From NCBI GenBank assembly GCA_964567085.1, contig CAZMKU010000001.1, forward strand, positions 1 to 53,862: 53,862 nucleotides of DNA. The letters are read 5' to 3'. This DNA comes from an uncultured Clostridium sp. Lineage in GTDB: Bacteria; Bacillota; Clostridia; Oscillospirales; CAG-272. Under the pieces are notes generated by a model that was not told the DNA's origin, ran no database searches, and saw only the letters and a list, made by a program, of their open reading frames with translations. The position numbers and the translations under genes are program-made. Shown one piece after another: positions 31,316 through 53,750 of the stretch (within the stretch, counting starts at the first letter, position 1; every line of letters begins with the position of its first letter).

Positions 31316-33091
31316 TTATACTTGCACAGCCTGGCTATTCCAAAGCTCGGAATAAAACCCGTCTCGGGCAAGAAGCTCATCGTGACTTCCCTTCTCGATT
31401 ACTTTGCCGTCCTTCATAACCAAAATTATGTCGGCTTCCTTGATCGTGGAAAGTCTGTGCGCCACGATAAACGAGGTTCTTCCCTTCATCATCGTAGCAA
31501 AAGCCTTCTGTATCTTCATTTCGGTTCTCGTGTCGATCGACGAGGTCGCCTCGTCGAGAATAAGCATAGGCGGCAGAGCGAGAATTACCCTCGCGATACA
31601 CAAAAGCTGCTTCTGTCCCTGCGAGAGCATGCCGCCGTCCTCACCGATCATAGTATCATATCCGTTCGGCAAGCGCTTAATAAACGAATGCGCGTGCGCC
31701 GCCTTTGCCGCCGAGATGATCTCCTCATCAGTGGCATCGGGCTTGCCCATACAGATGTTTTCTTTGATAGTTCCCACCTTTAGCCACGTATCCTGAAGCA
31801 CCATACCGTACGATGAGCGAAGCGAGCTTCTCGTAACGTCCTTTATATCGTATCCGCTCACGGAAATCTTGCCCTCGTCAACGTCATAAAACCTCATAAG
31901 CAGATTGATGACCGTGGTCTTTCCGCAGCCCGTAGGACCGACGATGGCAACCCTCTGGCTCTTTTCAATGTTAAGGTTAAAATCCTTTATAAGCTCGCGA
32001 TCCTTCGTGTAGGAAAAGCTTACGTTTTCGATCTTCACGTTTCCGTTTATATCCTCGTCCGTGAGCACCTTCGCGTCGGGCGCGTCGGGTGTCTCTGCGG
32101 GAGCGTCAATAAGCTCAAAAAGACGGGAAACACACGCCAGAGAATTCTGAAGCTCGGTAATTACGCCCGAGATCTCATTAAAGGGCTTCGTGTACTGATT
32201 TGCGTAGCCCAAAAGGCTTGAAAGCATACCGACGGTAAGCGAAGCGCCGCCCGAGCCTATGCATATAAGCGCGCCCGCAAGAGCTACCGCCGCGTAAACC
32301 AGATTATTTACAAATCTCGTCGAGGGGTTCGTAAGCGAGGAATAGAATACCGCCTTGAGCGATACGCGGCCAAGCTCATCGTTTATCTTGTCAAACCGCT
32401 CTATGACGTTCCCCTCCTGTGAAAACGCGACAACCGTCTTGTGCTCGCCGATCATCTCGTCGATAAGGGCGGTCTGCTCGCCTCTTACCTCCGCCTGCTT
32501 TTTGAAAAGAGTAAAGGTGCTCTTTGCTATAAACGCGGCAACGAACAGCGAAAGAGGTGTCATTACCACGACTATAACGGCGATTATGGGGTTTATGTAG
32601 ATCATAAAAGCCAGAGTCGCAAGAATAGTCAGCGCGCCCGTAAAGAGCTGGGAGAAGCCCATAAGAAGTCCGTCGGAGAACTGATCAACGTCGCCGATAA
32701 CACGGCTGACCGTGTCGCCGACCGAGTGGGAATCAATATAAGAGAGCGGCTGGGACTGAAGCTTCATAAAAGCCTCCCTGCGCATTCGCCTTACGATACC
32801 AAAGGTTATTTTGTTATTGCAAATATTCATTATCCATTGGAGCAAGCCCGTTACAATGGATATTATACCGATCTGAATAAGTATGCCGAAAATACCGTCA
32901 AGATCAACCGCTCCGCGACCGATCGCCATATCAATAGCGCGGCCGATAAGCACGGGGACGTATATAGTCAATGCCACTACGACCGCCGCCAAGATAAGCG
33001 ACAGGAGGAAAAGCCATTTATACGTCTCAAGGTATTTGAGCACTCTTTTCACGGTCTTGATATTCTTACCGTTTTCTTTTGTTTTCTTCAT
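31316..33091 (-). CDS. ABC exporter, fused permease/ATPase (heterodimer subunit 2)
   Basis: The ORF is 591 aa. A six-TM exporter domain is followed by an NBD with GPTGCGKTT, LSQGQKQLLCIAR and ILDEATS. Confidence 0.9.
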   Translation of the reverse strand: MKKTKENGKNIKTVKRVLKYLETYKWLFLLSLILAAVVVALTIYVPVLIGRAIDMAIGRGAVDLDGIFGILIQIGIISIVTGLLQWIMNICNNKITFGIVRRMRREAFMKLQSQPLSYIDSHSVGDTVSRVIGDVDQFSDGLLMGFSQLFTGALTILATLAFMIYINPIIAVIVVVMTPLSLFVAAFIAKSTFTLFKKQAEVRGEQTALIDEMIGEHKTVVAFSQEGNVIERFDKINDELGRVSLKAVFYSSLTNPSTRFVNNLVYAAVALAGALICIGSGGASLTVGMLSSLLGYANQYTKPFNEISGVITELQNSLACVSRLFELIDAPAETPDAPDAKVLTDEDINGNVKIENVSFSYTKDRELIKDFNLNIEKSQRVAIVGPTGCGKTTVINLLMRFYDVDEGKISVSGYDIKDVTRSSLRSSYGMVLQDTWLKVGTIKENICMGKPDATDEEIISAAKAAHAHSFIKRLPNGYDTMIGEDGGMLSQGQKQLLCIARVILALPPMLILDEATSSIDTRTEMKIQKAFATMMKGRTSFIVAHRLSTIKEADIILVMKDGKVIEKGSHDELLARDGFYSELWNSQAVQV

Positions 33092-40114: not shown

Positions 40115-40183
40115 AAGGCTATTGAGGCGGATTATGAGAGGTCGTCGTAGCGCGCGCATAATGAATTGCCTGAAACAATACAA

Positions 40184-40231
40184 AAGCACTTATGACAAAC
40201 GATTTGTTCGTTATCATAAGTGCTTTTTTAT
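40184..40231. terminator. bidirectional terminator between the SpoVB-like gene and the convergent surface-protein operon
   Basis: 12-bp stem AAGCACTTATGA / TCATAAGTGCTT. TTTTATT follows on the plus strand and TTTGTATT on the minus strand. Confidence 0.8.
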
Positions 40232-40266
40232 TATGGCGCTTGCTATGGTAGCAATAGCTTTTAATT

Positions 40267-41560: not shown

Positions 41561-44500
41561 TTAATTACCGGCAATTGCCTCGTACAATGCGCTATTGAAA
41601 ACGTCATCAACGTTTACCAAGCTCTTAAGGATCTCGTAGTCAACAACTGTGATGCTACCGTCCTTGTCAAGGTCAAGCACAACGTCGTATGTTTCATCAA
41701 GCTTACCGTTGATCATCTGCTTAATAGCGAGAAGCTCTGCGCCGTTAACAGCGCCGTCCTTGATGTAATCACCGAGAACCTTGGATGTGAATGTCAAAGC
41801 TTCTGCATCGAAGGAAGCGAACTTTGTGATGTCAACGATATCAGCATCCTCAACAAGCCATACGTTCTGCTTCGTGCCGAATGTGAAGGAAGCCGCGCCA
41901 ACGTTAGCGTCATCCTTAACCATGAAGTAAACTGTTGCAAGAACTGCGCCTTCTGCATCCTCACCAACTGTATTTACGAATGTGTAAGCTACGTCGGAAT
42001 TCTGAGGAACACCTGCGGAGATGCTAACCACGCCTTCGTTAGAAACAACGGACTCAATAACGAGGTTATCAATACCTGTTGTCATATCAGAGCCGAAGTA
42101 TACAACGTTATTGTTGAACGAGAAGGAGACGTCAAGCTGGCTGAAGTGGAAGTCCTTGTTGCCGTAAACGAGAACGTCAACCGCGATCCATGTGCCGTTA
42201 GCTGTTTCCTTTCTGTCAGACTTTGTAAAGCCTGTGAACTTGCCATCCTCGTCGAATGTGGGATATACTACGCTGTAGTCAAGCTCAAATTCGATACCGC
42301 CTGCCAAGGGTGTGTTAACAACGATCGTTTCATCGCAGTGAGGACACTTGTACGTGTCAACACCGTACGTTGTGGGAGTAGCATCAACGGAGTCAACAAG
42401 GTTGCCCATGATAGCTGCCTTGTGCTCTTCCTCTGTCCAAGGACCTCTTACTACTTCCATAGCAAGCTGAGTGTTACAGTCAACACATGTGTTGATGTGA
42501 ATTTCGCTTGTCTGGCATGTTGCGTTTGTAATCTGCTCGTCGAATCTGTGAACGAAATCAATGTCCTTATCGCATACTACGCAGTGACGGTCGTTGTCAA
42601 GAACGTCAGCCGCGCACTTGTCTGTGTCAAGGAACTTGTCGCCTGCAGCGTTGAAGTGACCTGTTGCGAGAATTACTTCGCCCTCAACGAGTGTGCTCTC
42701 GTCGCCGCATCTGTCACAGATCTTGTCGGAATACTTACCGTCAGTTGTGCACGTTGCGTCAACGCCCGTGCCGTTTTCAACTACGTTGTGTCCGAGAGGA
42801 GCGATATATTCTTCAAGAGCGAACGTATCAGCACCGTTACATGCTGTGCATACGGAGTACTTGAAGCTGGGAGTTGTACATGTAGCGGGCGCCGTCTGGA
42901 GCGTTACTACCGTACCCTCGTGATTTGTTGCGGGAATAAGTGCTGCCGCAGCTGCTTCTGCGATCTCTACCGTTGTAGAGCAGCAAGCCTTATATGTGTA
43001 GCCTGCCGTACCTGCCTCGTGGCACGTAGGAGCTACGGGCTTAACGGTTACTACCGTGCAAGGAACGCAGGAGAGAACCTCCCAAGTACCGTCGGGAGTG
43101 TGACCGAGGTCACAATCTGTGCAGTACTCGTGATATGTCCAACCCTCAATACCCAAGCTTTCGCAAGAGGGAGCCTGAGCGTCAGCTCTCATATTATGAG
43201 AAGCCTTGATATCAGAACCGATCTTTTCGCCTTCGTACGTGGAATCGATATATTCTGTGTAGCTGCAAATGTTACATACGTAACCGCCAACCGTACCTGT
43301 CTGGCAGATGTTGGATACGTGTTCAACGTATGTCCAGTTGTCTGTAGAAACGTTCTTGTCCGTGTATGCTGCAACGTAAACGAGCTCGCCGTCTTCAATC
43401 GCAATATAACCGTGACCCTTTGTCGTATCGTATTCTACTGTGTATGTGTATGTCTTACCGCAGTCTGCGCACTTCTTAGCGTATACGCCTGAAACGTTAC
43501 CGCAGTTAGCCTGTGTTACAACGGATGTGTAACCTGCGCTGAGGTCGTGAGAGGATTCGGATTCGGAATCGATCTCTACGAATGAGCCGTCAACAACGTA
43601 GTCGTCGCTACAGTCGGAGCAGATCATTTCCGTGTAACCTGCGTTTACACAGTTCATTTCGTGAACTACGGGCTGGTAGTTGTGAGCAAGAGCGATCGTG
43701 TCACCAACCTTCTTGTCAGCATATTCAGCTACAAGAACTTCTTCTGTGTTACAGATCAAGCAGATGTAACCACCTACCGTGCCTTCAACACACTTGTTAT
43801 CAACGTGAGCAACGTATGTCCACGTACCGTCAACGGAAGCGTTCTTGTCTTCGCCGTGAGCGGAAACGTAAACGAGCTGGTTGTCAACAACCTCAAGAGT
43901 ACCGTGACCCTTTGTTGTATCGTATGTTACTTCATCAGTAAATGCCTTTGTTTCGCAGTGTTCACACATCTTTACGTAAACGCCTGCGGGAGTGTTACAG
44001 CTTGCAACTGTTGTTGCAGACCAGTAACCAACGAAGGAGTGAGCCTCAGCAAGAGCCGTGTTGATTGCCACTCTGGAGCCTTCTACCTCGTACGTATCCT
44101 GGCAGTCAGCACAAACCATGTTTGTGTAACCCTCGGATGTACATGTCATTACGTGTACGTCTTCCTCGTAAGCGTGAGAAGCAGCGATCTCAGCGCCAAC
44201 CTTCTGGTCTGCGTATGCTTCTTCGATAACTTCTTCTGCCTTACAAATTTCGCAGATGTAACCGCCAACCGTACCTGTCTGGCAGATGTTGGATACGTGT
44301 TCAACGTATGTCCAGTTTTCCGTGGAAACGTTCTTGTCTTCGCCGTGAGCGAAAGTGTAAACGAGCTGGTGGTCGGTAACCTCAATAATACCGTGACCCT
44401 TCGTTATATCGTATTCAACCTCTTCCGTGTAATCTGTCGTGTCACAGTTGTCACACTTCTTTACGTAAACGCCCTTAAGGTTTGCACAGCTTGCAGTCGT

Positions 44501-47257
44501 TTCCGCATACAAGTAAGAGCCTGTGAAGGAGTGACCCGTTGTAGGAATAATTTCCTTTTCAACGTATTCGCATCCATCGTTTACACAAGTCCAGCCGTTA
44601 TAACCGTCAGCCGTACACGTGGGATCTACGTGAACGTCGGTTTCTTCATTGAAGCTATGACCTGTAGCCTTTGTTGTTTCTGTTATTGTATCACCACAGC
44701 CCTCAACGCTACATACGAGAGTTGTGATACCGTCTTCCGTACATGTAGCCGTCGTGCCTGTAGCAACGTGAGTATGAGCAACCGTGGGAACAACCGTGGA
44801 GGACTGCTCACCACCGCATCTTGTGCACTCGTAGTATTCCGTACCCGTTGCGATACAGCTGGGAATATCCTCGAATACCTTTTCTACGTTATGACCAAGC
44901 GCTTCGATAATAACGTCCGCGCCGATCTGTACGCCGCAACCTTCAGTTGTACAATAGTATCTTCCAATACCCGTCGCCGTGCAACTGGGTTCTACGTCAA
45001 CCTTGTATTCACCTGCGCCGTCATTGGAGTGACCCGTTGCAGCAACAGACTGTGTTCTTATCTGCTTATCACATTCCGTACAGTAGATCACAGCTACGCC
45101 CTCGTTTGTACACGTGGGCTCTGTTGTAGTTACGGGGTCATCTTCTGTATGGCCTACAGCCTGGAGGACTTGAGTTTCAATAACGTGAGTACAATCATCG
45201 TATCCGCATACCCACTGAGCAGAGCCGTCTGCTTCACAGGTAGGATCCTGCTTTGTTGTGGGCTCCTCGAGCTTGAGATGCTCGCGCTTTGTTACAGTAA
45301 TCGTAAGAACGTCGGGATACGTTGTATTGAATTCGGATTCTGTCATCCAGATATCCGTGGGAGTACCGTCAAGAGTATATGCAGAGTATTCTGCAGCAGT
45401 CTTACCGTTGGGAATAACCATGATCACTACTTCGCACTCTGTGCATGTAGCAAATGCCCAGCCGTTTGCAAAGCATGTAGCTGCAGAGGACTTAACGATG
45501 GAGAATGTACCGCAGTGCTTCGTGGAGGCGATCTCACCAACCTCGATGTGATCGTCAACAACCGCGTCGCACCACTTACAAATGGACTTGCGGATTTCGG
45601 GAGACATGCAGTTTGCCTCGCTAACGAGAACTGTTTCTTCCTTAGCTACGCAAGGAACAACGGAAAGCACGGAACCGGGCTTCACGTAATCGCAGCCGTC
45701 AACCTCACAGATGCTGTTAGCCTTGTAGCCAACCGTCTGACACGTGGGAGCGATCTCTTCCGTGTTGTACTGGTGACCTGCAGCGGGAATTTCCTCGGGC
45801 TCAACCACAACGATGCCGCACTCCGTACACTTTGTGCCGGACGTATAACCAACCGTCGTACACGTGGGGAACGTAGCCGCCTGAACACCCTTATGATAAC
45901 CCAAAGCGCTGTGAGCCGCTACCAGCTCAGCGTTGGAAATCGTTTCCTGAGGAACCGTTACCGTGTCACAGTCCACACACTTCTGACCTGCTGTAAGACC
46001 GTCAGCCTTACATGTGGGATCAACCGCGGGAAGAGCAGTAATACCCGTGTGAGCCGTCGCCGCCTCAGACTCCGTTACCGTGTTAGAGCAGAACTTACAG
46101 GTCTTAACCGTAACGATCGTCTCTACGCAATCTTCAATCGTAGAAGCCACGCTGGTGATCTCGTGATCGTGACCCTGCGTCGTGTAAACCGTGTGCTCGC
46201 AGCCTGCGTGCTGGCACTCGGAGATCATATTGTTTTCAACTCCGCAAGCATAGTTGAGAAGTCTTACGGGCGCGGACATATTGTGATCCTCTGTTGCATA
46301 TACAACGTGATCACAGCCATCGTTCTGACAAACGGACTTCATATTGTCCTCAACCGTGCAGCCCATACCTTCGATTCTTACGAACTCGGACATATTGTGA
46401 CCCGTAGCATCAACCACTAGAGTTGTGAGGTCACCGATTCTGCCCGCGTTACCCTGAGTATTAGCTTCGCTGAAGTTGTTGCCGCACATCGTACAAACGT
46501 GATATTCCTGCATACCCGTTTCAAGGCAAGTGGGAGCCACCGCGGGAACTACGTATGTAATGTGCTGACGTGTAGCCTTGATAGTTACGTTTTCCTGAAC
46601 CGCCGTACAAGCAATGCCGGACTCGTGAACAGCCACGCACTTGAACGTAACCTGACCTGCAGCGTTACACTTGGGCGCAACGTAAGTATCGTCGAATACA
46701 GGCTGGTAGTTATGATACGTCTCGTGCCACTCAACGCTTTCAACGTGACCGCAAGCGAGACACTCTCTGCTCATATCAAGGTCTGTACACTGATAGTCAG
46801 TCGTTACAGTCCATTCTGTGAACTTATGACCAAGAGCCGGGAGCGCGAACGCCTCAGAGCCGCCCTCAACTACGTTGCCTTCCGTATCGGCAACAGCGTC
46901 ACAAGCCGCAGACTTGCATACCTTGTAAGCAGCGTTACCTGCTGTTGTACATGTAGGTGCCACCGCGGGAACGTCCTCCCATACGTGGTCGCCTGCCTCG
47001 GGGCCAACGATGGAATCGCTGAGAATATGAACCTCATCGCATCCCTCAACCTGGCACTCGAAGTAAGTATAGCCGTTCTTGCCGTTCACATGGTCAGGTG
47101 CAACCACGTGAGGCTCGCCGCTAAAATCGCATACGTGCGAATCAGAAGCTGTATCGTCGCTTCCTGTCGCGAATGCGGGAACGTAAACAACACTAAGAGT
47201 CATCATCAACGCAAGGATCAATGCGAGAGTTCTCTTAGAAAAAATTATACGTTTCAT
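41561..47257 (-). CDS. giant secreted protein: more than 35 Cys/His mini-modules plus a C-terminal cohesin-like domain and dockerin-like repeats
   Basis: The ORF is 1,898 aa with a signal peptide ending ...VPAFA|TG. Recurrent PTCxxxG...CxxC...GH modules fill most of it. The C-terminus has DLDKDGSITVVDYEILKSLV (an EF-hand-like dockerin segment) preceded by GDYIKDGAVNGAELLAIKQMI. Confidence 0.9.
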   Translation of the reverse strand: MKRIIFSKRTLALILALMMTLSVVYVPAFATGSDDTASDSHVCDFSGEPHVVAPDHVNGKNGYTYFECQVEGCDEVHILSDSIVGPEAGDHVWEDVPAVAPTCTTAGNAAYKVCKSAACDAVADTEGNVVEGGSEAFALPALGHKFTEWTVTTDYQCTDLDMSRECLACGHVESVEWHETYHNYQPVFDDTYVAPKCNAAGQVTFKCVAVHESGIACTAVQENVTIKATRQHITYVVPAVAPTCLETGMQEYHVCTMCGNNFSEANTQGNAGRIGDLTTLVVDATGHNMSEFVRIEGMGCTVEDNMKSVCQNDGCDHVVYATEDHNMSAPVRLLNYACGVENNMISECQHAGCEHTVYTTQGHDHEITSVASTIEDCVETIVTVKTCKFCSNTVTESEAATAHTGITALPAVDPTCKADGLTAGQKCVDCDTVTVPQETISNAELVAAHSALGYHKGVQAATFPTCTTVGYTSGTKCTECGIVVVEPEEIPAAGHQYNTEEIAPTCQTVGYKANSICEVDGCDYVKPGSVLSVVPCVAKEETVLVSEANCMSPEIRKSICKWCDAVVDDHIEVGEIASTKHCGTFSIVKSSAATCFANGWAFATCTECEVVIMVIPNGKTAAEYSAYTLDGTPTDIWMTESEFNTTYPDVLTITVTKREHLKLEEPTTKQDPTCEADGSAQWVCGYDDCTHVIETQVLQAVGHTEDDPVTTTEPTCTNEGVAVIYCTECDKQIRTQSVAATGHSNDGAGEYKVDVEPSCTATGIGRYYCTTEGCGVQIGADVIIEALGHNVEKVFEDIPSCIATGTEYYECTRCGGEQSSTVVPTVAHTHVATGTTATCTEDGITTLVCSVEGCGDTITETTKATGHSFNEETDVHVDPTCTADGYNGWTCVNDGCEYVEKEIIPTTGHSFTGSYLYAETTASCANLKGVYVKKCDNCDTTDYTEEVEYDITKGHGIIEVTDHQLVYTFAHGEDKNVSTENWTYVEHVSNICQTGTVGGYICEICKAEEVIEEAYADQKVGAEIAASHAYEEDVHVMTCTSEGYTNMVCADCQDTYEVEGSRVAINTALAEAHSFVGYWSATTVASCNTPAGVYVKMCEHCETKAFTDEVTYDTTKGHGTLEVVDNQLVYVSAHGEDKNASVDGTWTYVAHVDNKCVEGTVGGYICLICNTEEVLVAEYADKKVGDTIALAHNYQPVVHEMNCVNAGYTEMICSDCSDDYVVDGSFVEIDSESESSHDLSAGYTSVVTQANCGNVSGVYAKKCADCGKTYTYTVEYDTTKGHGYIAIEDGELVYVAAYTDKNVSTDNWTYVEHVSNICQTGTVGGYVCNICSYTEYIDSTYEGEKIGSDIKASHNMRADAQAPSCESLGIEGWTYHEYCTDCDLGHTPDGTWEVLSCVPCTVVTVKPVAPTCHEAGTAGYTYKACCSTTVEIAEAAAAALIPATNHEGTVVTLQTAPATCTTPSFKYSVCTACNGADTFALEEYIAPLGHNVVENGTGVDATCTTDGKYSDKICDRCGDESTLVEGEVILATGHFNAAGDKFLDTDKCAADVLDNDRHCVVCDKDIDFVHRFDEQITNATCQTSEIHINTCVDCNTQLAMEVVRGPWTEEEHKAAIMGNLVDSVDATPTTYGVDTYKCPHCDETIVVNTPLAGGIEFELDYSVVYPTFDEDGKFTGFTKSDRKETANGTWIAVDVLVYGNKDFHFSQLDVSFSFNNNVVYFGSDMTTGIDNLVIESVVSNEGVVSISAGVPQNSDVAYTFVNTVGEDAEGAVLATVYFMVKDDANVGAASFTFGTKQNVWLVEDADIVDITKFASFDAEALTFTSKVLGDYIKDGAVNGAELLAIKQMINGKLDETYDVVLDLDKDGSITVVDYEILKSLVNVDDVFNSALYEAIAGN
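43100..44530 (-). repeat. intragenic tandem triplication (unit about 486-492 bp, 163 aa) inside the giant protein gene
   Basis: An identical 60-bp segment (gtaaccgccaaccgtacctgtctggcagatgttggatacgtgttcaacgtatgtccagtt) occurs at 43280-43339 and 44258-44317. A diverged middle copy starts at 43766. The protein repeats share ...YD[IT]TKGHG...NWTYVEHVSNICQTGTVGGY... Confidence 0.85.
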
Positions 47258-47878
47258 CCTTATTTTTCCTCCAAAAATAATTTAGTATTTGAGCAAAAAA
47301 GTACAAATAGAGACAATTTGGACATAGTTACCCATACTTATTTGACTCATTATAACATATAAAAATGCCTTTGTCAATAGATTTGGAAATTTTTAAGCAA
47401 AAATTTTACTATTTTTTTATTAAAAATTTTCATATGCCGACAAAGGTATTCAACGACGCCTCAAGAGGCGAAAAGAGCCGTTTTTCGCCTCTCCGCCGCC
47501 CCGAAATCAGCGAAACCCTTCATTTTTTAAATATATGCGCGCGCACGTAAAGAATTGACGGGAAGCAGAGGTGTTTTTGAACCGTCCTTGCCCTCGCGAG
47601 CAGCAAAATTTACCCCGAAGCAGCGCTCGATCAAGCCCGCGCGCGAGCTTAATGAAATTTAATCATAAATTAAAGGTTTATTTTTAAACCTATTGTTTAT
47701 ACAATTTCCCCGCTTGATTATTTTTTCAAAAGCAGGTATATTCCCAGAAAAAATCACAAATAATAGCAATACAGACCAAAGCTTGTTCCTTGCAAAAACG
47801 CGCGAGGAGCAGGAAATGCTCTACTGACGGGCCGCGATCGCGGCTCTTACAATAAAACGGAAAAAGGATGTTATATAT

Positions 47879-48424
47879 ATGAAAGCTACAGGAATAGTCA
47901 GAAGGATAGACGATCTCGGACGCGTCGTTATCCCCAAGGAGATCAGAAGAACCATGAGGATCCGCGAGGGCGACCCTCTTGAAATTTTTACAGACCGCGA
48001 CGGAGAAGTAATTTTCAAAAAATACTCACCCATCGGCGAGCTCGGAGCGTTTTCAGCTCAATACGCCGAGACTCTGCACAAGACCTGCGACCTGTCGGTC
48101 ATCATCTGCGACCGCGACAGCGTAGTTGCCTCCGCGGGCGTATCCAAAAAGGAATACAATGATCGCTCGCTCTCGGATGAGCTTGATGCGATAGCGGACG
48201 GCAGAAGCCTATACGTCCACCGCACGGGCGACGAGAGGATACCGCCCCTGCGCGACGGCGGCAGCCACCACGTCAGCTGCGCTATGCCCATCATCTGCGA
48301 GGGCGATATCGTGGGCATCGTGGCGTCGCTCACACAGGGCGGAGCCGACAGAACTCCCGAGGCGGTGGAGACAAAGCTCATTCAGACCGCGGCGAGCTTC
48401 CTCGGCAAGCAGATGGAGAGCTAA
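47879..48424 (+). CDS. spoVT: stage V sporulation protein T (AbrB-type N-terminal domain plus GAF-like C-terminal domain)
   Basis: The ORF is 181 aa. MKATGIVRRIDDLGRVVIPKEIRRTMRIREGDPLEIFTDRDGEVIFKKYSP is nearly identical to the B. subtilis SpoVT N-terminus as I remember it. The C-terminus ends ...ETKLIQTAASFLGKQME. Confidence 0.92.
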   Translation: MKATGIVRRIDDLGRVVIPKEIRRTMRIREGDPLEIFTDRDGEVIFKKYSPIGELGAFSAQYAETLHKTCDLSVIICDRDSVVASAGVSKKEYNDRSLSDELDAIADGRSLYVHRTGDERIPPLRDGGSHHVSCAMPIICEGDIVGIVASLTQGGADRTPEAVETKLIQTAASFLGKQMES

Positions 48425-48920
48425 AGCGCGTGACGTCCCCGTCGGACGGTAACGCGTCGAGTCGGCAAAGCCGACGTATCGGCAGAAAAAGGCAAGGACA
48501 AAAATAAATGCGCGTTATCCTTAAAGGAGAACGCGCTAAAACCAAGGTTGCCATATGGACAGGTGAAGTTATCTTCGATAGTGAAGCTCACTTGGTGAGT
48601 GAGGTTTCGCCTGACGGCGAAGTTATGGGCAAGCTTAACTTCACTTGTGCGTAGCGTATACTAACGGGGGGAGCAAGAGCCTCCCCTGTATAAAGAGAGG
48701 TGGCTCGCATAGCGAGACGGAGGTAATGTAGCCTTCGGCAATGATATTGTGCCTACGGCGCGGTGGGCAAACATCACATCATTTTGCGCTGACAGCGCAA
48801 CACATCACTGCGCGCAAGCACAACATCATTATGAGCGAAGCGAATAACATCACTTCTTTACCATCCGAAAACAAAATATGGTATAACACACTATACCTTG
48901 CAGGGCAAGGAGGTGTGCAA
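48425..48920 (+). ncRNA. candidate large structured non-coding RNA or structured spoVT 3' extension (family not recognised)
   Basis: There is no credible ORF. GC is about 50% by hand count, against roughly 25-30% in other spacers. At least 12 short GC-rich hairpins are present, plus a 9-bp long-range helix (48563-48571 with 48636-48644) enclosing three hairpins. It ends at the terminator at 48919-48953. The strand is assumed from spoVT read-through. Confidence 0.4.
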
Positions 48921-48953
48921 AAAGGACGAGAAAAATCTCGTCCTTTTGATTTT
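48919..48953. terminator. bidirectional rho-independent terminator
   Basis: GGACGAG-AAAAAT-CTCGTCC is flanked by AAAAA and TTTTGATTTT. It can serve both the plus-strand spoVT/ncRNA unit and the convergent lipoprotein gene. Confidence 0.8.
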
Positions 48954-49037
48954 AATATAGAACCGCTATATGGTAGGCGCCCAAAGAGCCCCCTTCGTGA
49001 TGCTTCGATTGAAGCATCACGAAAGAACAGATGACTT

Positions 49038-52000
49038 TTATGACGCGGTATGATAATACTCCATCATAATAGCTGCGCCGCCATAATAAAGCGTAATGTA
49101 ATCTCCCGTGTAGAATGCCTCACCGGGACGTGTGCCGCTCGCATCAACGTAGCATCCTGTTTTACCGTCCGTATATGCCGTGCTACCCGTGCTGGTCTGG
49201 AATACGGGAGCGCCCGAAGCGGCATAAGCGTCAACATAGGGATTCTGGAAGGTCGTTCCCGCATAGTTCTTGTAATGCGATACCATGCCCGTCGTGTTCG
49301 TTTCGCCCACACGCGTAAAGGATGCGTTAGTATACGTGCCATTCAAGCTTGTTCCGTCGCCGCCCATACTTACCATGATCATATTTACGGCTTCGACGCC
49401 TTGTATCTTATCCGTCGAAATAAATCCGTGGGGGCCATTCTGACCATTCTGACCGCTGATAAGCGCGCTCATAGCCTTTATATTAGCCGCAAGCTGAGTC
49501 TGACCAACCGCTACGAACCAAGCCTCCTGACCCGTTACGTAAGTATAGATCTCACTCTTGGTGTCCGCAATTACTCTTACGCCGTTCGTCTTGTTATAAT
49601 TCTCTTGGCAATTAGGAGCCTGCACGAGCATTACGGGGCCGCCGCACTTAGCAAGAAGCGAATCGGTAATATTTACTACCTGATCGGGAATATAGCTCCA
49701 CGTATCTTGATTTTTGCCGCCCATCGTTGACTGCAGCTCATTCTCGCTCCAAAGCAAGAGGTGTCCCTGCCATGCGTTGTAGAACTTGACCTTATTGAGA
49801 TTAAGCGTTGTTCCCGCAAATTCAAGAACCAAGGAGGTCATGAACGCGTCAACGTTAACGTTGGTCATATTACAGGTAAGCTCACCCGTCTTATAGCAGC
49901 AAAGACCTCTCATATGTCTTTCGCTTGCAGTCTGGTCGTTGGAGTTGGGGTCGTTATCTCTTGTTGCAAGATCGTTAACATTAAATACGTACTCATCAAA
50001 GGGGTTCGAGTCACCCGCAAGTCCGCGAGCGTTAATGTCAGCCTCTGCAGCATATGTAAGCCTTACCTTGATAAGCGAAGCAGACGAAAATTCGTCGTCG
50101 TTGCCCGCAATACCCTTGGGAGTTACGCAAGGAAGGTTATAGGAATAGATGCTGAAGTAGTTACCGTAGATCTCAAACTTCTTTTCATCGGGAGTAAGCT
50201 CGCGGTGGAATATGCCGAGATGATCGTAGAGGCCCTGCTGTGTTACGCCGTTATTATCCTGATATGTATAAATATACTCGGAGGGAATATCGCTTGTCGT
50301 AACGTCAAGATTACAGTGAAGAACGACACTTGCAAGAGTCGTAGGTCTTGTTACACCGTACTTCTTGAGGAACTTATCAACAGCCTGAACCTGATTGATC
50401 GCGCCCTCGTCACCGTAGAAGCCGTTCGTACAATCGCGGGCGGTGTTCGTAATAACATTCAATTCCCAAGCGTTGTAAATATTATAGCCGTCAACTACGG
50501 TTACGGTGTGCGACTTCGTTACGCTCGCCTTGTCCACGTAGCTTGTGCTGTCCGCAGGCCAGATCTCAAGTCTGAACGTCTTGCCGATCGCCTTGTCAGT
50601 GAAATCGTAAGAGTTCATCGCGGAATCAAACGCTACCATTTCGGTAAGAGCGCTGCCCGTAAGCTCGGTCTCGGAGCCGTCGCCGTTTACAAGATAAACC
50701 TTGGACGACGTAGCAATATTTTTACCGTCGACGTCAACGATATTATCGTTTTCGTCAAGCTGAATAACGTTAAGATAGAAGTAGTAGGGGTTATCGTCGC
50801 CTACGCGGTATGCGCTGGTGCTGTCCTTGTAGTTCTTCGCATAGCTTTCTCTTGCCACGAGCTCGTCGGGAAGAAGCGTGCCGAAGATAAGACCCGAAAG
50901 CGTTGCCGCCTCCTTAACCTCGATCTCCATGCTTCCTTCCTTGTTAAGATAGGAAACCACAAGAGTTACCTTCTTCGCGGAGGAGGTATCAACCGTACCA
51001 ACCACGAGATTGGGATTATTTCTGTTTACGTAAGTATACGTGCCGTCCTCGTAAGTAACCTTAACGGAGATGTCGGACGTGTCAAGCTTCTTACCTACGG
51101 TAACGATACTCAGGACGCCGCCAACGATCTCAACCTTCTCAACGCCTCTTACGTGGATATTTACACTTGTATCCAAGGTTACGGCGCCATCCGCGAACAC
51201 GAAGGAAATAGCCTTCCAGCCCGAGGTGGTAGTGTCAACATTTTTAGGAGTTACGGTCAGACGGGCATCCGTGAAGGGGATAAGATAAACGGCGCCGTTA
51301 TCATAATATACCGAAAGCTTCATAGTTGAATAGTCAACCACGTCGCCCTGATTTACCAACGCGGGAACCGTGTTATTGAGCGCGGAGATGCGCACCGCAT
51401 TGATAACCGTAAGATCTACAGAAGCCGAGCAGCCCTCGTAGGTAACCGTAAACTTACCGCTCTGAGCGTTCGTCTGCTCCGTCTTAACGGAAACGCCAAC
51501 AAGCCCGCTCGCCTTCTTCTGTTCCTTATCACCGTTGGAATAAGTGATGTTAAGAGTAAGGTTGGAGGAATCGGCGTCGTATCCGTTACGAAGGTCGGTA
51601 TCAACGCTGCCTCCGAGAATCGCAATATTCGTTACTACACGAACGTAGTACGTTGCCGTTGCTTCAACGCCCATGCAGCTGACCGTAAGGGTCTTGTAGC
51701 CCTCCTCGGACGTGTCGTAAGGAAGAACCTGAACGTCGCTGTCGTGCGCTACGCGAAGCTCTTCATTCGTGCCGTCGGAGTAAGCCACGATAACCTTGAG
51801 CTTCGAAAGGTCGAGCTTGCCGCCTCTGTCGGCTATAAGGCCCGAGACGCCGTTCAAAATAAGGTAGGACGCGGGAAGAACGGAAACCTCTACGGTCGCG
51901 CTCTTCGTTATGTCACCGTCAGTATAAGTAACTGTGAGAGTCGTCGCACCCGCAACGCTCGTGTCAAGCGCGGATACCTCGTAATTTGTGATCTTCTCAG

Positions 52001-53642
52001 CTTCGCCGTTACTGTATATAGCATATACGGCCAGGCTGCCAAGGTCGTACGTACCGTCAATAACCACGTGATCCTTCCAGCTTCTGATCTCGATGCTCTC
52101 AAGCTCGAGAGGCTCTGCGGAAATTACGTAGTTCTGGGAAAGTGTACCGTACTCGCCGCTGTAGGATACAACGAGAGTCTTATTGCCCTCAACGGTTATG
52201 TCAATATCGTCAACGTTAGTCGTGATACCGTCCGTGAGAAGAACCTCTGTTTCAGCGGTGTTGTTATAAACGCCGTAAACCTTCATACCGCTGATATCAA
52301 TAGCTTCGCCCACAGGAACAACCTTTGCAACGCCCTCAACACGAAGGCTTGTGATCTCACAAACCTTTACTGTGTATTCAAGAGTCTTGTTGAGGTAAGT
52401 AATAGTGAGCTTCTGCTCGCCTGCAACGTTACCGTCAATGCTGCCGATAACAAGGTCAGCCGCGTCAAGATGCACTACCGTGCCGCCCGTGAAGGTAGCA
52501 CTTGCGCTGATGCCGCTAAGGTCAAGAGATTCACCCTTGAGAATTTCCGTCTTGATAGCGCCGCCGTGAACGATAACGAGAGACTCAACGGCTACGACCT
52601 CAACCTCAACGGTCGTCTCAAGTCCGCCATATGCTACGGTAAGAGTCTTCTTTCCGACCGTGGACGTATCAAGCGTGCCAAGAGAAAGGTCGGCTGCGCT
52701 CAGGGTCTTTTCCGAGCCGTCGCTATACGAAGCGACCGCGGTGATCGAGGGAGCTGTGTAAGCGACGTCGATCAGAGCCTTTTCGGGATAAGAGCCCTTA
52801 TTCACTTCGACGGAAAGCACGCCGACTACGGTTACCTTGTAATCAATAGTCTCACCCGCAAACGAAATTGTAAGAGTCTTGTCGCCATAGGTCGTCGTAT
52901 CAAGAGCGCCGAGAGTAAGCTCGGACGCGCCGAGATGCTCCTCGTGATCGTCATTATAAACAACGATAACCTGAAGCGCGGACGTATCGAGAGCCTCGCC
53001 TACGCCAACCTTCTTGGATATCGTCTCCGCATTTACGTGCATAGACTTAATGCCGATAACCTCGTATTCCGCGCTTGCTGTAAGCGTGGGATCGTCAGTA
53101 TAGGTTACGGTAAAGGTCTTCTTGCCCTCGCTCGTTACGTCAACGCCCGTATAGGTGTATTCCTCGGAGTCAAGAACGCCGGTATTGCCGTTGCTGTACG
53201 TAGCCTCGATCTGAAGGCTCGACATATTGGGAGCAATACCGAGATAGTAGGATTCGCTGACAGAACCCGCTACTATCTTGATTGCGGTTACGTATGCATT
53301 GGCATCGGGGTCGATTACGGTTACGCTAACCTTTGCGGATTTGCCGCCGTAGGTAACTGTTACCGACTTTGAGCCCGCAGTCGTCGTGTCGAGCGAGCTT
53401 ACGGTTACGCCGTCTGCGATACCAACCTCTTTGGTAGTACCGTCCTCAAAGGTAGCCTTTACCTTGATTCCCGAAAAATCGGGGGTTTCACCCAAATTAA
53501 CCTGGGTGGGGATACTTCCGCTCACAACCTCGATAGCCGTTACGCCTGTCACCACAGGATCGTCGCTGCTGTCGGGACAAGCCGTAAGACATAACAGCGT
53601 TGCGAGCGCGATCATCATAAAAATAATTAATTTTCTTTTCAT
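49038..53642 (-). CDS. large surface lipoprotein: about 11 bacterial Ig-like repeats plus a C-terminal domain of about 600 aa of unknown function
   Basis: The start is set at MKRKLIIFMMIALATLLCLTAC (lipobox LTAC, AAGGAG RBS 6 nt upstream of the ATG at 53642). The track ORF extends to 53708. Repeats of about 80 aa end in ...K[TS]LTVTY......V.V. The C-terminal part is Asn/Thr/Gly-rich. Confidence 0.88.
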   Translation of the reverse strand: MKRKLIIFMMIALATLLCLTACPDSSDDPVVTGVTAIEVVSGSIPTQVNLGETPDFSGIKVKATFEDGTTKEVGIADGVTVSSLDTTTAGSKSVTVTYGGKSAKVSVTVIDPDANAYVTAIKIVAGSVSESYYLGIAPNMSSLQIEATYSNGNTGVLDSEEYTYTGVDVTSEGKKTFTVTYTDDPTLTASAEYEVIGIKSMHVNAETISKKVGVGEALDTSALQVIVVYNDDHEEHLGASELTLGALDTTTYGDKTLTISFAGETIDYKVTVVGVLSVEVNKGSYPEKALIDVAYTAPSITAVASYSDGSEKTLSAADLSLGTLDTSTVGKKTLTVAYGGLETTVEVEVVAVESLVIVHGGAIKTEILKGESLDLSGISASATFTGGTVVHLDAADLVIGSIDGNVAGEQKLTITYLNKTLEYTVKVCEITSLRVEGVAKVVPVGEAIDISGMKVYGVYNNTAETEVLLTDGITTNVDDIDITVEGNKTLVVSYSGEYGTLSQNYVISAEPLELESIEIRSWKDHVVIDGTYDLGSLAVYAIYSNGEAEKITNYEVSALDTSVAGATTLTVTYTDGDITKSATVEVSVLPASYLILNGVSGLIADRGGKLDLSKLKVIVAYSDGTNEELRVAHDSDVQVLPYDTSEEGYKTLTVSCMGVEATATYYVRVVTNIAILGGSVDTDLRNGYDADSSNLTLNITYSNGDKEQKKASGLVGVSVKTEQTNAQSGKFTVTYEGCSASVDLTVINAVRISALNNTVPALVNQGDVVDYSTMKLSVYYDNGAVYLIPFTDARLTVTPKNVDTTTSGWKAISFVFADGAVTLDTSVNIHVRGVEKVEIVGGVLSIVTVGKKLDTSDISVKVTYEDGTYTYVNRNNPNLVVGTVDTSSAKKVTLVVSYLNKEGSMEIEVKEAATLSGLIFGTLLPDELVARESYAKNYKDSTSAYRVGDDNPYYFYLNVIQLDENDNIVDVDGKNIATSSKVYLVNGDGSETELTGSALTEMVAFDSAMNSYDFTDKAIGKTFRLEIWPADSTSYVDKASVTKSHTVTVVDGYNIYNAWELNVITNTARDCTNGFYGDEGAINQVQAVDKFLKKYGVTRPTTLASVVLHCNLDVTTSDIPSEYIYTYQDNNGVTQQGLYDHLGIFHRELTPDEKKFEIYGNYFSIYSYNLPCVTPKGIAGNDDEFSSASLIKVRLTYAAEADINARGLAGDSNPFDEYVFNVNDLATRDNDPNSNDQTASERHMRGLCCYKTGELTCNMTNVNVDAFMTSLVLEFAGTTLNLNKVKFYNAWQGHLLLWSENELQSTMGGKNQDTWSYIPDQVVNITDSLLAKCGGPVMLVQAPNCQENYNKTNGVRVIADTKSEIYTYVTGQEAWFVAVGQTQLAANIKAMSALISGQNGQNGPHGFISTDKIQGVEAVNMIMVSMGGDGTSLNGTYTNASFTRVGETNTTGMVSHYKNYAGTTFQNPYVDAYAASGAPVFQTSTGSTAYTDGKTGCYVDASGTRPGEAFYTGDYITLYYGGAAIMMEYYHTAS

Positions 53643-53750
53643 TTGTTTCTCCTTAAAAACAGAACATTTCAATGAAAAATGGTGTTTTAATATAATTTTG
53701 ACATTCAATTATATATTAAATTTACAAATATTCAGTTAATAAGTATTCAA

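Follow-up and report, generated by a model that had tools for sequence, protein, structure and literature searches.

The closest described relative of the element considered here is Gut-1 (RF01706), a likely RNA reported from human gut sequences (Weinberg et al. 2010, PMC2864571). The Rfam model of Gut-1 spans 77 nucleotides (nt) and consists of three to four tandem mini-hairpins, split by a word of the GUGAAAU or GUGAUAU type, in uncultured gut bacteria. The element itself is the 613-nt spacer that lies 3′ of the gene spoVT in a 53.9-kilobase (kb) stretch of DNA from an uncultured Clostridium sp. (contig CAZMKU010000001.1). That whole stretch, 54 kb in round figures, is called the window below. 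The spacer contains parts of two "ladders," foldback arrays in which a set of identical short words on one arm is answered by complementary words on the other, with part of the first arm resembling Gut-1, and a third repeat referred to as the core.

Several other systems bear a partial likeness to these modules. REP/BIME, pneumococcal BOX, and neisserial Correia elements are short, non-coding, hairpin-forming, and modular, with a variable number of sub-units. They occupy many unrelated intergenic sites, often at gene 3′ ends and in both orientations, and some of the copies are truncated or chimeric. Transcribed together with their neighbors, they can stabilize or terminate transcripts. However, they share no sequence similarity with the ladders, whose density in bacterial DNA is low and which give no sign of a transposase, a duplicated target, or an excision polymorphism. 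REP arrays also display the reverse pattern, as it is the words that are identical in the ladder arms and the hairpins that differ. Eukaryotic foldback transposons likewise have inverted arms made of short tandem units, and the whole element can snap back, but they belong to another domain of life and another size scale, and transposition of the ladders is only conjectural. Finally, ROOL, GOLLD, OLE, HEARO, and raiA are large, structured, non-coding RNAs often found in phages or in gut and rumen Firmicutes, whereas the spacer strings small repeated modules together and has no single conserved fold.

What, then, is the spoVT spacer? The block is non-coding, repeat-derived, modular, dispersed, hairpin-constrained, and terminator-bearing. 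It is likely a chimera of dispersed self-folding repeat modules, transcribed as the 3′ untranslated region (UTR) of spoVT and contributing, if anything, a stable 3′ structure and a shared terminator. From 5′ to 3′ on the plus strand, the window carries two private hairpins, an A-type ladder up to its first 3′ rung, a joint, a decayed core, and what remains of a B-type ladder, from its last 5′ word to its terminator and tail. The features are as follows.

48427-48456 (nested) and 48461-48475, plus strand: two locus-specific hairpins directly 3′ of the spoVT stop, read from the sequence.
48508-48536, plus strand: hairpin 0 (GCGCGUU..AACGCGC), the 5′ boundary of the A-type ladder, aligned with copies L149-L151 and L153.
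48547-48625, plus strand: A-type 5′ arm, a Gut-1-like array with a degraded first hairpin and four 8-mers, each followed by a mini-hairpin (alignment A3).
48563, 48581, 48599, and 48617, plus strand: the A-type 8-mers GUGAAGUU, GUGAAGCU, GUGAGGUU, and GCGAAGUU, respectively, with an exact 18-nt period.
48626-48655, plus strand: A-type center, the sole surviving 3′ rung UAACUUCAC (48636-48644), and half of the next hairpin (BLAST).
48672-48734, plus strand: decayed core copy of the layout AAAG-CCUCCC-loop-GGGAGG-UG-hairpin-ACGGAGGGAUUGU (covariance model R1).
48727-48770, plus strand: B-type 5′-arm remnant, with hairpin GCCUUCGGC, rung AUGAUAUU (48741-48748), a hairpin at 48749-48761, and center GGUGGGCAA (alignment A4, with L154, L156, and L158).
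48771-48855, plus strand: B-type 3′ arm, with four ACAUCAY rungs (48771, 48802, 48823, and 48847) and a mini-hairpin after each.
48856-48915, plus strand: B-type conserved 3′ domain, with hairpins at 48866-48885, 48880-48897, and 48896-48910 (alignment A4).
48919-48953, both directions: B-type intrinsic terminator, a 12-base-pair (bp) stem and a T-run (consensus terminator scan).
48954-49023: tail conserved with B-type homologues to about 49000 (BLAST against L158/L159), then a perfect 13-bp hairpin (48994-49023).

The spacer is bounded by spoVT (47879-48424, plus strand), whose product has an AbrB/MazE-type domain and SpoVT_C, and by a convergent gene for a lipoprotein-like protein of 1556 amino acids (49038-53708, minus strand). 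A sequence-only reading of this DNA had proposed a large structured RNA here, drawing attention to a GC-normal spacer of about 610 nt. The composition is as described, with a G+C (GC) fraction of 0.49, a coding-like value above that of every other true spacer in the window (0.19-0.43). An apparent second GC-rich spacer, 31784-32440, is actually coding and belongs to an open reading frame (ORF) for a 591-residue ABC transporter on the minus strand. All of the local helices listed by that reading are present at the coordinates given, those at 48510-48536, 48704-48716, and 48784-48800 among them. The segment 48425-48960 folds at −206 kcal/mol on the plus strand, against −152 ± 5.7 in dinucleotide shuffles (z = −9.6), and the minus strand gives z = −9.8 in the same comparison. 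Among 12 window spacers compared, the spoVT spacer is the most structured (z = −11.5; the next two, −6.5 and −6.4). The sequence-only reading was also right that no terminator stands directly after spoVT. A consensus scan from the stop codon (48424) to 48920 returned none, the first site being at 48920-48947, and the two private hairpins are not terminators because neither has a U-tract after it.

Is the spacer tied to spoVT? At 80 spoVT loci fetched from related uncultured Clostridia (56-81% protein identity), blastn, nhmmer, and tblastx found nothing similar to it, whether nucleotide or translated, and most of these loci have fewer than 200 nt 3′ of spoVT. The homologous downstream regions for which the sequence-only reading had proposed a search are missing from these loci, and a conserved spoVT 3′ UTR is rejected on this evidence. 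The modules are instead found elsewhere. When bovine and gut metagenome contigs were aligned to the region, short, high-depth contigs of 85-97% identity covered 48563-48655 and 48764-48950 separately, with flanks unlike those of the window, which is the signature of repeats common to many contexts. No metagenome contig covers 48435-48515, and 48435-48540 is almost bare. Cultured phage and plasmid collections yielded no match to the block. A-type ladders follow at least 10 different upstream genes and B-type ladders occur in 3 contexts; of the 10 bacterial elements for which an upstream gene has been called, 9 run in the direction of that gene. Within the window, both ladders are truncated and the core is decayed. 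The junctions of the chimera are common to no other sequence reached; L001, from the same organism, spans only part of the block. Several contigs (L161, L162, L152, L149, and L164) start or end inside the repeats, which thus break short-read assemblies. Of the large RNA proposed earlier, what survives is an extraordinarily structured, non-coding block in a likely spoVT read-through transcript, with hairpins kept by compensatory and wobble changes. What does not survive is a single unit of about 500 nt bound to spoVT, the three modules being conserved separately behind unrelated genes and in phages.

To describe the complete ladder, its 5′ arm carries four identical 8-mers (GUGAAGUU in the A-type, RUGAUGUU in the B-type), each followed by a hairpin of 9 to 16 nt. 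A short center leads to a complementary 3′ arm of four 8-mers (AACUUCAC or AACAUCAY), again with a hairpin after each, and then to an intrinsic terminator; a terminator-like hairpin and U-run can be read from the sequence after the complete copies examined. The arms of complementary 8-mers are terminal inverted repeats. Words are spaced 16 to 22 nt apart, and the hairpin parts differ between units. In all, five rung types were found in complete elements, and each is matched on the opposite arm by its exact reverse complement, mostly in a 4 + 4 arrangement. In a single-stranded fold, the words would pair as four nested rungs with hairpins branching from both sides, giving a stack of four-way junctions.

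Gene callers predict small ORFs over the A-type array, and the A-type homologues were retrieved through 26 protein relatives of a spurious 48-residue ORF (48508-48654) and then their DNA, together with one short contig, L149, from the metagenome scan. BLAST aligns this DNA with window positions 48510 to about 48655-48662 at 85-88% identity. The genes 5′ of the copies encode a lipoprotein-like ORF, RsmF, YbjN, a GFO/IDH oxidoreductase, MecA, and NifU. A complete copy begins with hairpin 0, a short linker, a hairpin, about four units of GUGAAGUU plus mini-hairpin, and the center; four units of AACUUCAC plus mini-hairpin follow, and then the terminator UAACAGAAAAAGAG...CUCUUUUU. The window copy is the 5′ half of such an element and lacks three further AACUUCAC rungs and the terminator; there are two mismatches in its first hairpin and mutations in two of its words. 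A 9-bp long-range helix enclosing three hairpins (48563-48571 with 48636-48644), correctly picked out by the sequence-only reading, is the one surviving rung of this ladder; the recurrence of GUGAAGUU-type words with an exact 18-nt period had escaped it.

How well conserved are the A-type copies? RNAalifold on six of them pairs successive 5′ words with successive 3′ words as nested rungs of 8 to 9 bp, with hairpins on both sides. Hairpin 0 shows a compensatory change from C-G to U-A (GCGUGUU..AACACGC), and the third 3′-arm hairpin changes from UUUUGC/GCAAAA to UUUCGC/GCGAAA in three of the six copies. Compensatory or wobble changes occur in hairpin 0, hp1, hp3, and the 3′-arm hairpins, several of the pairs being G-U on the plus strand. 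Between copies, identity is 96-99% in the rungs, 98% in the center, and 89% in the 5′-arm hairpins but only 57% in the 3′-arm hairpins; with rungs and center near-invariant, the elements are therefore not decaying uniformly. Conservation begins at hairpin 0, and no conserved promoter was found 5′ of it. Two observations bear on how the parts are arranged. In L161 and L162, which are near-identical, a 48-nt insertion 3′ of the A-type element (about 215-265 in L162) is flanked by ATAAG on both sides and resembles a reverse-complemented B-type rung and hairpin unit; the difference could reflect the gain or loss of a small module or a footprint of mobility. In L152 (1-310), a block of about 60 nt, GAAGCGAAGCAUGAGCUUUGGGGGUUCGCGGUGCAACUUCAC...AACUUCAC, stands on both sides of the A-type 5′ arm, so ladder parts can be arranged in tandem.

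The second ladder lies at 48727-49000 in the window, which represents the 3′ two-thirds of a B-type element, its own terminator included. The motif ACATCA[CT][AT] had been reported at 48771, 48802, 48823, and 48847; it occurs nowhere else in the window, and the four copies, each followed by a palindrome, are the 3′ arm of this ladder. Homologues, retrieved with a 97-residue ORF (48741-49034) as the handle, come from three distinct loci (L154-L159) that match the window at 80-88% identity between 48727 and about 49000 and stand after other genes; metagenome contigs over 48846-48950 reach 90-97%. The full B-type ladder has its own hairpin 0, a RUGAUGUU 5′ arm, the center AAUGGGCAA, four ACAUCAY words, the 3′ domain, the terminator, and about 50 nt more of conserved sequence. 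The first 70 nt or so are missing from the window, where one degenerate 5′ word, AUGAUAUU, is left. The terminator is kept in the homologues, and L154 shows a compensatory replacement of A-U by G-C. An A-tract precedes the stem (48920-48947) and a T-tract follows it, so it can work in both directions. Transcripts reading through from spoVT probably stop there, as do those of the convergent gene, whose stop codon (49038) adjoins the 13-bp hairpin at 48994-49023. Just inside the terminator on the minus strand is a promoter-like TGCACA-18-TATAGT (48919-48890), the −10 part of which is kept in all B-type homologues. If active, it would yield an antisense transcript reading four units of GUGAUGUU plus hairpin.

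How do the ladders relate to Gut-1? Complete A-type copies score 51.3 (L150), 46.4, 44.2, 43.6, and 43.3 bits against the Rfam model, for which the gathering score is 50 bits, and B-type 5′ arms score 30 to 34 bits. The Gut-1 layout is present in the window, where short tandem hairpins are linked by a (G)UGAAAU-like word four times (48563, 48581, 48599, and 48617), and 48539-48610 scores 17.1 bits (E = 1.9), below the gathering score. This low score results from truncation after the first 3′ rung, the mismatched hairpin, and the two mutated words. The flanks of the Gut-1 seed alignment themselves show a ladder, with GUGAUAUU four times answered by AAUAUCAC four times and closed by an outer stem (PMC2864571). 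Judged by these alignments, Rfam's Gut-1 model is the 5′ arm of a ladder. The full unit differs from the model in being a foldback of 170 to 330 nt with a complementary 3′ arm, in having GUGAAGUU or RUGAUGUU as its words, and, in the bacterial A- and B-type copies examined, in carrying a terminator. Its hosts are rumen Clostridia and their phages, not the "human gut only." The statement of the sequence-only reading that no known RNA family matches therefore needs amending, as the 5′ module is homologous to sequences at or near the Gut-1 threshold. The Rfam search it called for turned up no gathering-score hit anywhere in the window; with the limit relaxed to E ≤ 10 for the spacer region, it gave this weak Gut-1 match and otherwise chance-level hits. 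Literature searches on Gut-1 follow-ups, hairpin-array RNAs, and clostridial miniature inverted-repeat transposable elements returned nothing beyond the 2010 paper.

Phages carry ladders as well. A scan of IMG/VR with a loose GTGAAGTT array pattern returned 42 viral loci. Iterons or coding repeats with no relation to the ladders made up nearly all of these, and just four (L094, L116, L120, and L085) carried true ladders or half-ladders. The exact A-type pattern had no match in viral contigs, and the 120 viral loci that matched an ACATCAY array pattern included none that was genuine after a hairpin filter. The phage ladders score 27 to 48 bits against Gut-1 and number two to five arrays per 10 to 20 kb. 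L094 has two 4 + 4 GUGAAGUU/AACUUCAC elements that are mutually inverted, with centers that are reverse complements; because the flanking frames run in the same direction, ladders must be able to switch orientation. In L116 there are five arrays, which use four different words and include single ones without a complementary partner. Those examined closely lie between genes, directly 5′ of ribosome-binding sites, with RUGA... in the gene sense. In L120 and L085, a UCGAUAU/AUAUCGA ladder is preceded by a core copy, and cores adjoin ladders also in the window, L116, and L158. Two side observations belong to these scans. GP20-b RNA (RF03003) occurs on phage contigs with ladder or core repeats, at L094 4684-4743 (plus strand, 52.3 bits), between the two ladder elements, and at L129 1184-1243 (minus strand, 32.0 bits). 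Long GGGTGAAGT(C/T) arrays without hairpins lie beside CGATAGAGACGAT arrays in L083 (6490-6590 and 7965-8140), L108, and L093; on these unrelated phage contigs, they look like iterons or an origin and are false positives for GTGAAGT-based searches.

The core is a two-hairpin repeat that came to light when BLAST tied window positions 48675-48729 to phage contig L116. A pattern drawn from this pair matched 26 viral loci, a relaxed pattern gave 72 copies, and covariance model R1, built from 69 phage and bacterial copies, gave 85 copies in viral loci and another five across 507 kb of bacterial loci. Their consensus reads AAAG-[C/G]CUCCC[U/C]-loop-[A/G]GGGAG[G/C]-UG-hairpin-(A)C[G/U]GAGGG[A/G]UUGU, and the second hairpin has a different sequence in nearly every copy. 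Density reaches 12 per 10 kb (phage contig L144), with both orientations relative to long ORFs. The core matched nothing in Rfam, only unannotated human-fecal phage contigs in cultured phage and plasmid collections, and nothing in the literature. On the window, R1 has a sole hit of 34.8 bits (E ~3e-8), at the low end of the family range of 20 to 80 bits, with two non-canonical pairs in stem 1. The stem here is CCUCCC/GAGAGG, with one C·A mismatch, and the tail is GGAGGUA instead of GGAGGGA; with both broken, this copy looks decayed. A 16-nt joint connects it to the A-type module, and a G-run in the joint pairs with the core's CCUCCCC to give the helix at 48668-48686, which competes with the core's own stem. 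Between the ladders, the GUGAAGUU 5′ words and AACAUCAC 3′ words can pair only with a central A·A mismatch and are unpaired in the minimum-energy fold.

The 3′ tail of the core mirrors the purine strand of stem 1 rather than complementing it, and tail and strand covary at three or more positions. Where the closing pair is C-G, the tail has G (41 of 41 copies), and where it is G-C, the tail has U (16 of 16). Where the seventh pair is U-A, the tail has A (34 of 36), and where it is C-G, the tail has G (19 of 19); all four counts ignore relatedness among copies. Lower-scoring variants follow the same rule (AGGGGGC with UGGGGGA; GGGAGAGC with UGAGAGGG), and some sub-families depart from it at one position. 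Loci that show it include L124, L144, L147, L138, L136, L129, and L145. What could produce such a pattern? No Watson-Crick pairing that could be constructed accounts for the mirror rule. The covariation suggests an intramolecular triplex or an H-DNA-like mirror repeat. In fold-back purine-motif triplexes, the triads expected are G·G-C and A·A-U, with U or T opposite an inverted pair; more is known of these triplexes in DNA than in RNA. The order of parts in the core, namely, pyrimidine strand, loop, purine strand, linker, and mirror-image purine tail, is that of the textbook R·R-Y layout. The likeness comes from sequence statistics alone, however, and the window copy violates the rule. Folding statistics favor the G-rich strand for the core, which may be a composition effect.

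Taken jointly, these results allow a bolder and quite tentative proposal: that Gut-1 is the 5′ arm of a foldback element, mobile and serving as a four-fold platform, and that the core is an intramolecular purine-motif triple helix. The full Gut-1 unit may be a foldback of 170 to 330 nt, with four identical 8-bp rungs and flanking hairpins, forming a rod of stacked four-way junctions. Rumen and gut Clostridia and their phages may share it as a mobile module of RNA or single-stranded DNA whose invariant RUGAWRUU words form the binding platform.

For the spoVT locus itself, the account preferred here is simpler. The three kinds of module are scattered across intergenic regions in Clostridia of the rumen and gut and in their phages, and the simplest history of the window would be two adjacent or recombined elements with internal loss. 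The block would be transcribed as the spoVT 3′ UTR, and its effect at this locus would be only a very stable 3′-end structure and a shared bidirectional terminator, in the manner of REP, BOX, and Correia repeats. Rung pairing in vivo, the spread of the elements, and an effect on RNA stability are steps that we infer. Several points weigh against this account. (i) None of the RNA runs searched for the stretch contains it. (ii) The 54-kb window has one locus of these elements. In the 507 kb of bacterial loci, ladder arrays occur only in those fetched by homology to the window spacer, so with five core copies in that sample, the repeats are sparse in bacteria, unlike REPs. (iii) No target-site duplication, empty site, or transposase was found, nor any consistent flanking duplication at the element ends; mobility would thus follow from context diversity alone. 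(iv) Folding energy, G-U counts, and GNRA/UNCG loops do not distinguish between the two strands of the ladders. (v) The near-invariant 5′ arm and rungs point to a sequence-specific function, which a purely selfish or stabilizing repeat leaves unexplained.

This last point leads to the alternative that survives best, albeit as an unlikely one: that the ladders are functional RNAs, with the window hybrid as a working member. The four single-stranded RUGAWRUU words would bind an oligomeric protein or RNA, may be held apart by the hairpins, and may belong to an RNA that is free-standing or derived from a 3′ UTR. Gut-1 was, after all, rated a likely RNA by Weinberg et al. (PMC2864571), the 8-mers and 5′ arm hold almost invariant as the 3′ hairpins drift, and the word count per arm is always about four. 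The partnerless arrays of L116, placed in gene sense directly before ribosome-binding sites, fit as well, and at L153 the upstream gene is divergent, so that copy would need its own promoter. Yet no promoter is conserved 5′ of hairpin 0. The window hybrid, for its part, lacks three of the four 3′ rungs of the A-type and retains little of the B-type 5′ arm; it also has a degraded first hairpin and a Gut-1 score of just 17 bits. To our knowledge, the ladder words have no known binding partner.

Might the arrays act as duplex DNA instead, with the 8-mers as protein sites such as iterons, centromere-like sites, operators, or transposase-binding ends? Identical short words, four per arm and inverted between the arms, would suit this idea, as would the many arrays in phages, the flipping of whole elements, and the fact that unrelated phage iterons with GGGTGAAGT came from the same scan. 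The word spacing of 16 to 22 nt is not helically phased, however, and the spacers are all palindromes of different sequence kept by compensatory and G-U changes, which duplex binding would not need. With the orientation bias toward the upstream gene and the attached terminator also speaking against it, this explanation is very improbable.

Still weaker, and already largely refuted, is the idea of one structured RNA of about 500 nt specific to the spoVT locus or to sporulation. It drew on the high structure z score and the lack of an internal terminator, but nothing like it is conserved 3′ of spoVT in the 80 related genomes, its parts are conserved separately in unrelated contexts, its ladders are truncated, and its core is decayed. 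No Rfam family, including ROOL, GOLLD, OLE, HEARO, and raiA, has a gathering-score hit in the window, and at E ≤ 10, no large RNA matches 48300-49150, where the matches are at chance level apart from the weak Gut-1 one. The spacer is thus probably not a dedicated sporulation RNA. Type III toxin-antitoxin and CRISPR arrays, with identical repeats of 28 to 45 nt beside a toxin or cas gene, were rejected because the units here are 16 to 22 nt, the hairpins differ, and the neighbors are spoVT and the lipoprotein gene. Nut-like boxA/boxB, SECIS, k-turns, attC sites, and toxin-decoy RNAs were set aside on anatomy, by inspection of the sequence.

The least credible alternative, a small protein (the 48-residue ORF or the 97-residue ORF) or a decayed gene, can claim a gene call for the 48-residue ORF with AAGGA 9 nt upstream, 26 similar "proteins" in the database, and an 18-nt period equal to six codons, but it meets no Pfam match for any of four ORFs, an ATG that is TAG in L149, a 1-nt deletion in a hairpin loop that shifts the frame there, no tblastx match at the related spoVT loci, and a 27-sequence alignment in which only 31 residues over the array are conserved while starts, upstream frame, N termini, and C-terminal ends vary. 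By these comparisons, the 48-residue ORF is not coding, and a small protein from it was rejected on start loss, frame shifts, and variable ends. The sequence-only reading had recognized only the ORF at 48741-49034, overlooking this one with its plausible ribosome-binding site.

What does the chimeric-repeat account mean for annotation? At the genome level, the outcome is deflationary, as there is no evidence for a sporulation-specific large RNA 3′ of spoVT. The annotation should be that of non-coding, repeat-derived DNA similar to Gut-1 and ending in a shared terminator, with neither the 48- nor the 97-residue ORF called as a gene. Taken by itself, the locus is unremarkable, being a broken relative that scores low against an orphan family already described. 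At the family level, four things are new, in that they are absent from Rfam and the searchable literature: the full ladder, its range in the rumen and in phages, its preferred positions, and the core with its mirror covariation. Gut-1, for 16 years an orphan of the human gut only, gains hosts, namely Clostridia of the rumen and gut together with their phages; a foldback ladder as its full-length architecture, with a terminator in bacterial copies; characteristic positions, just 3′ of a co-directional gene in bacteria and between or upstream of genes in phage contigs; and variants that can be used for covariation analysis and structure determination. An abundant core repeat outside Rfam is also exposed, whose mirror covariation is hard to explain without a triple helix.

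The surroundings of the spacer have features of their own. The locus is flanked by two giant secreted or lipoprotein-like proteins, one of 1898 residues (41561-47257, minus strand), rich in Cys-rich repeats, and the other the 1556-residue protein already mentioned. Large convergent genes without a Pfam hit also face A-type elements in L150 (>1175 residues), L152 (>1908), and L151 (467), which may be coincidence or a positional preference. The spacer 5′ of spoVT (47258-47878) is unusually structured as well (z = −6.4; −4.9 for 47380-47880), and at 47377-47349 on the minus strand a perfect TTGACA-17-TATAAT with a TG extension faces the 1898-residue gene. Finally, in the spacer at 40115-40266, the z score of −6.5 is explained by an ordinary bidirectional terminator hairpin, AAAAGCACUUAUGA...UCAUAAGUGCUUUUUU, between convergent genes.

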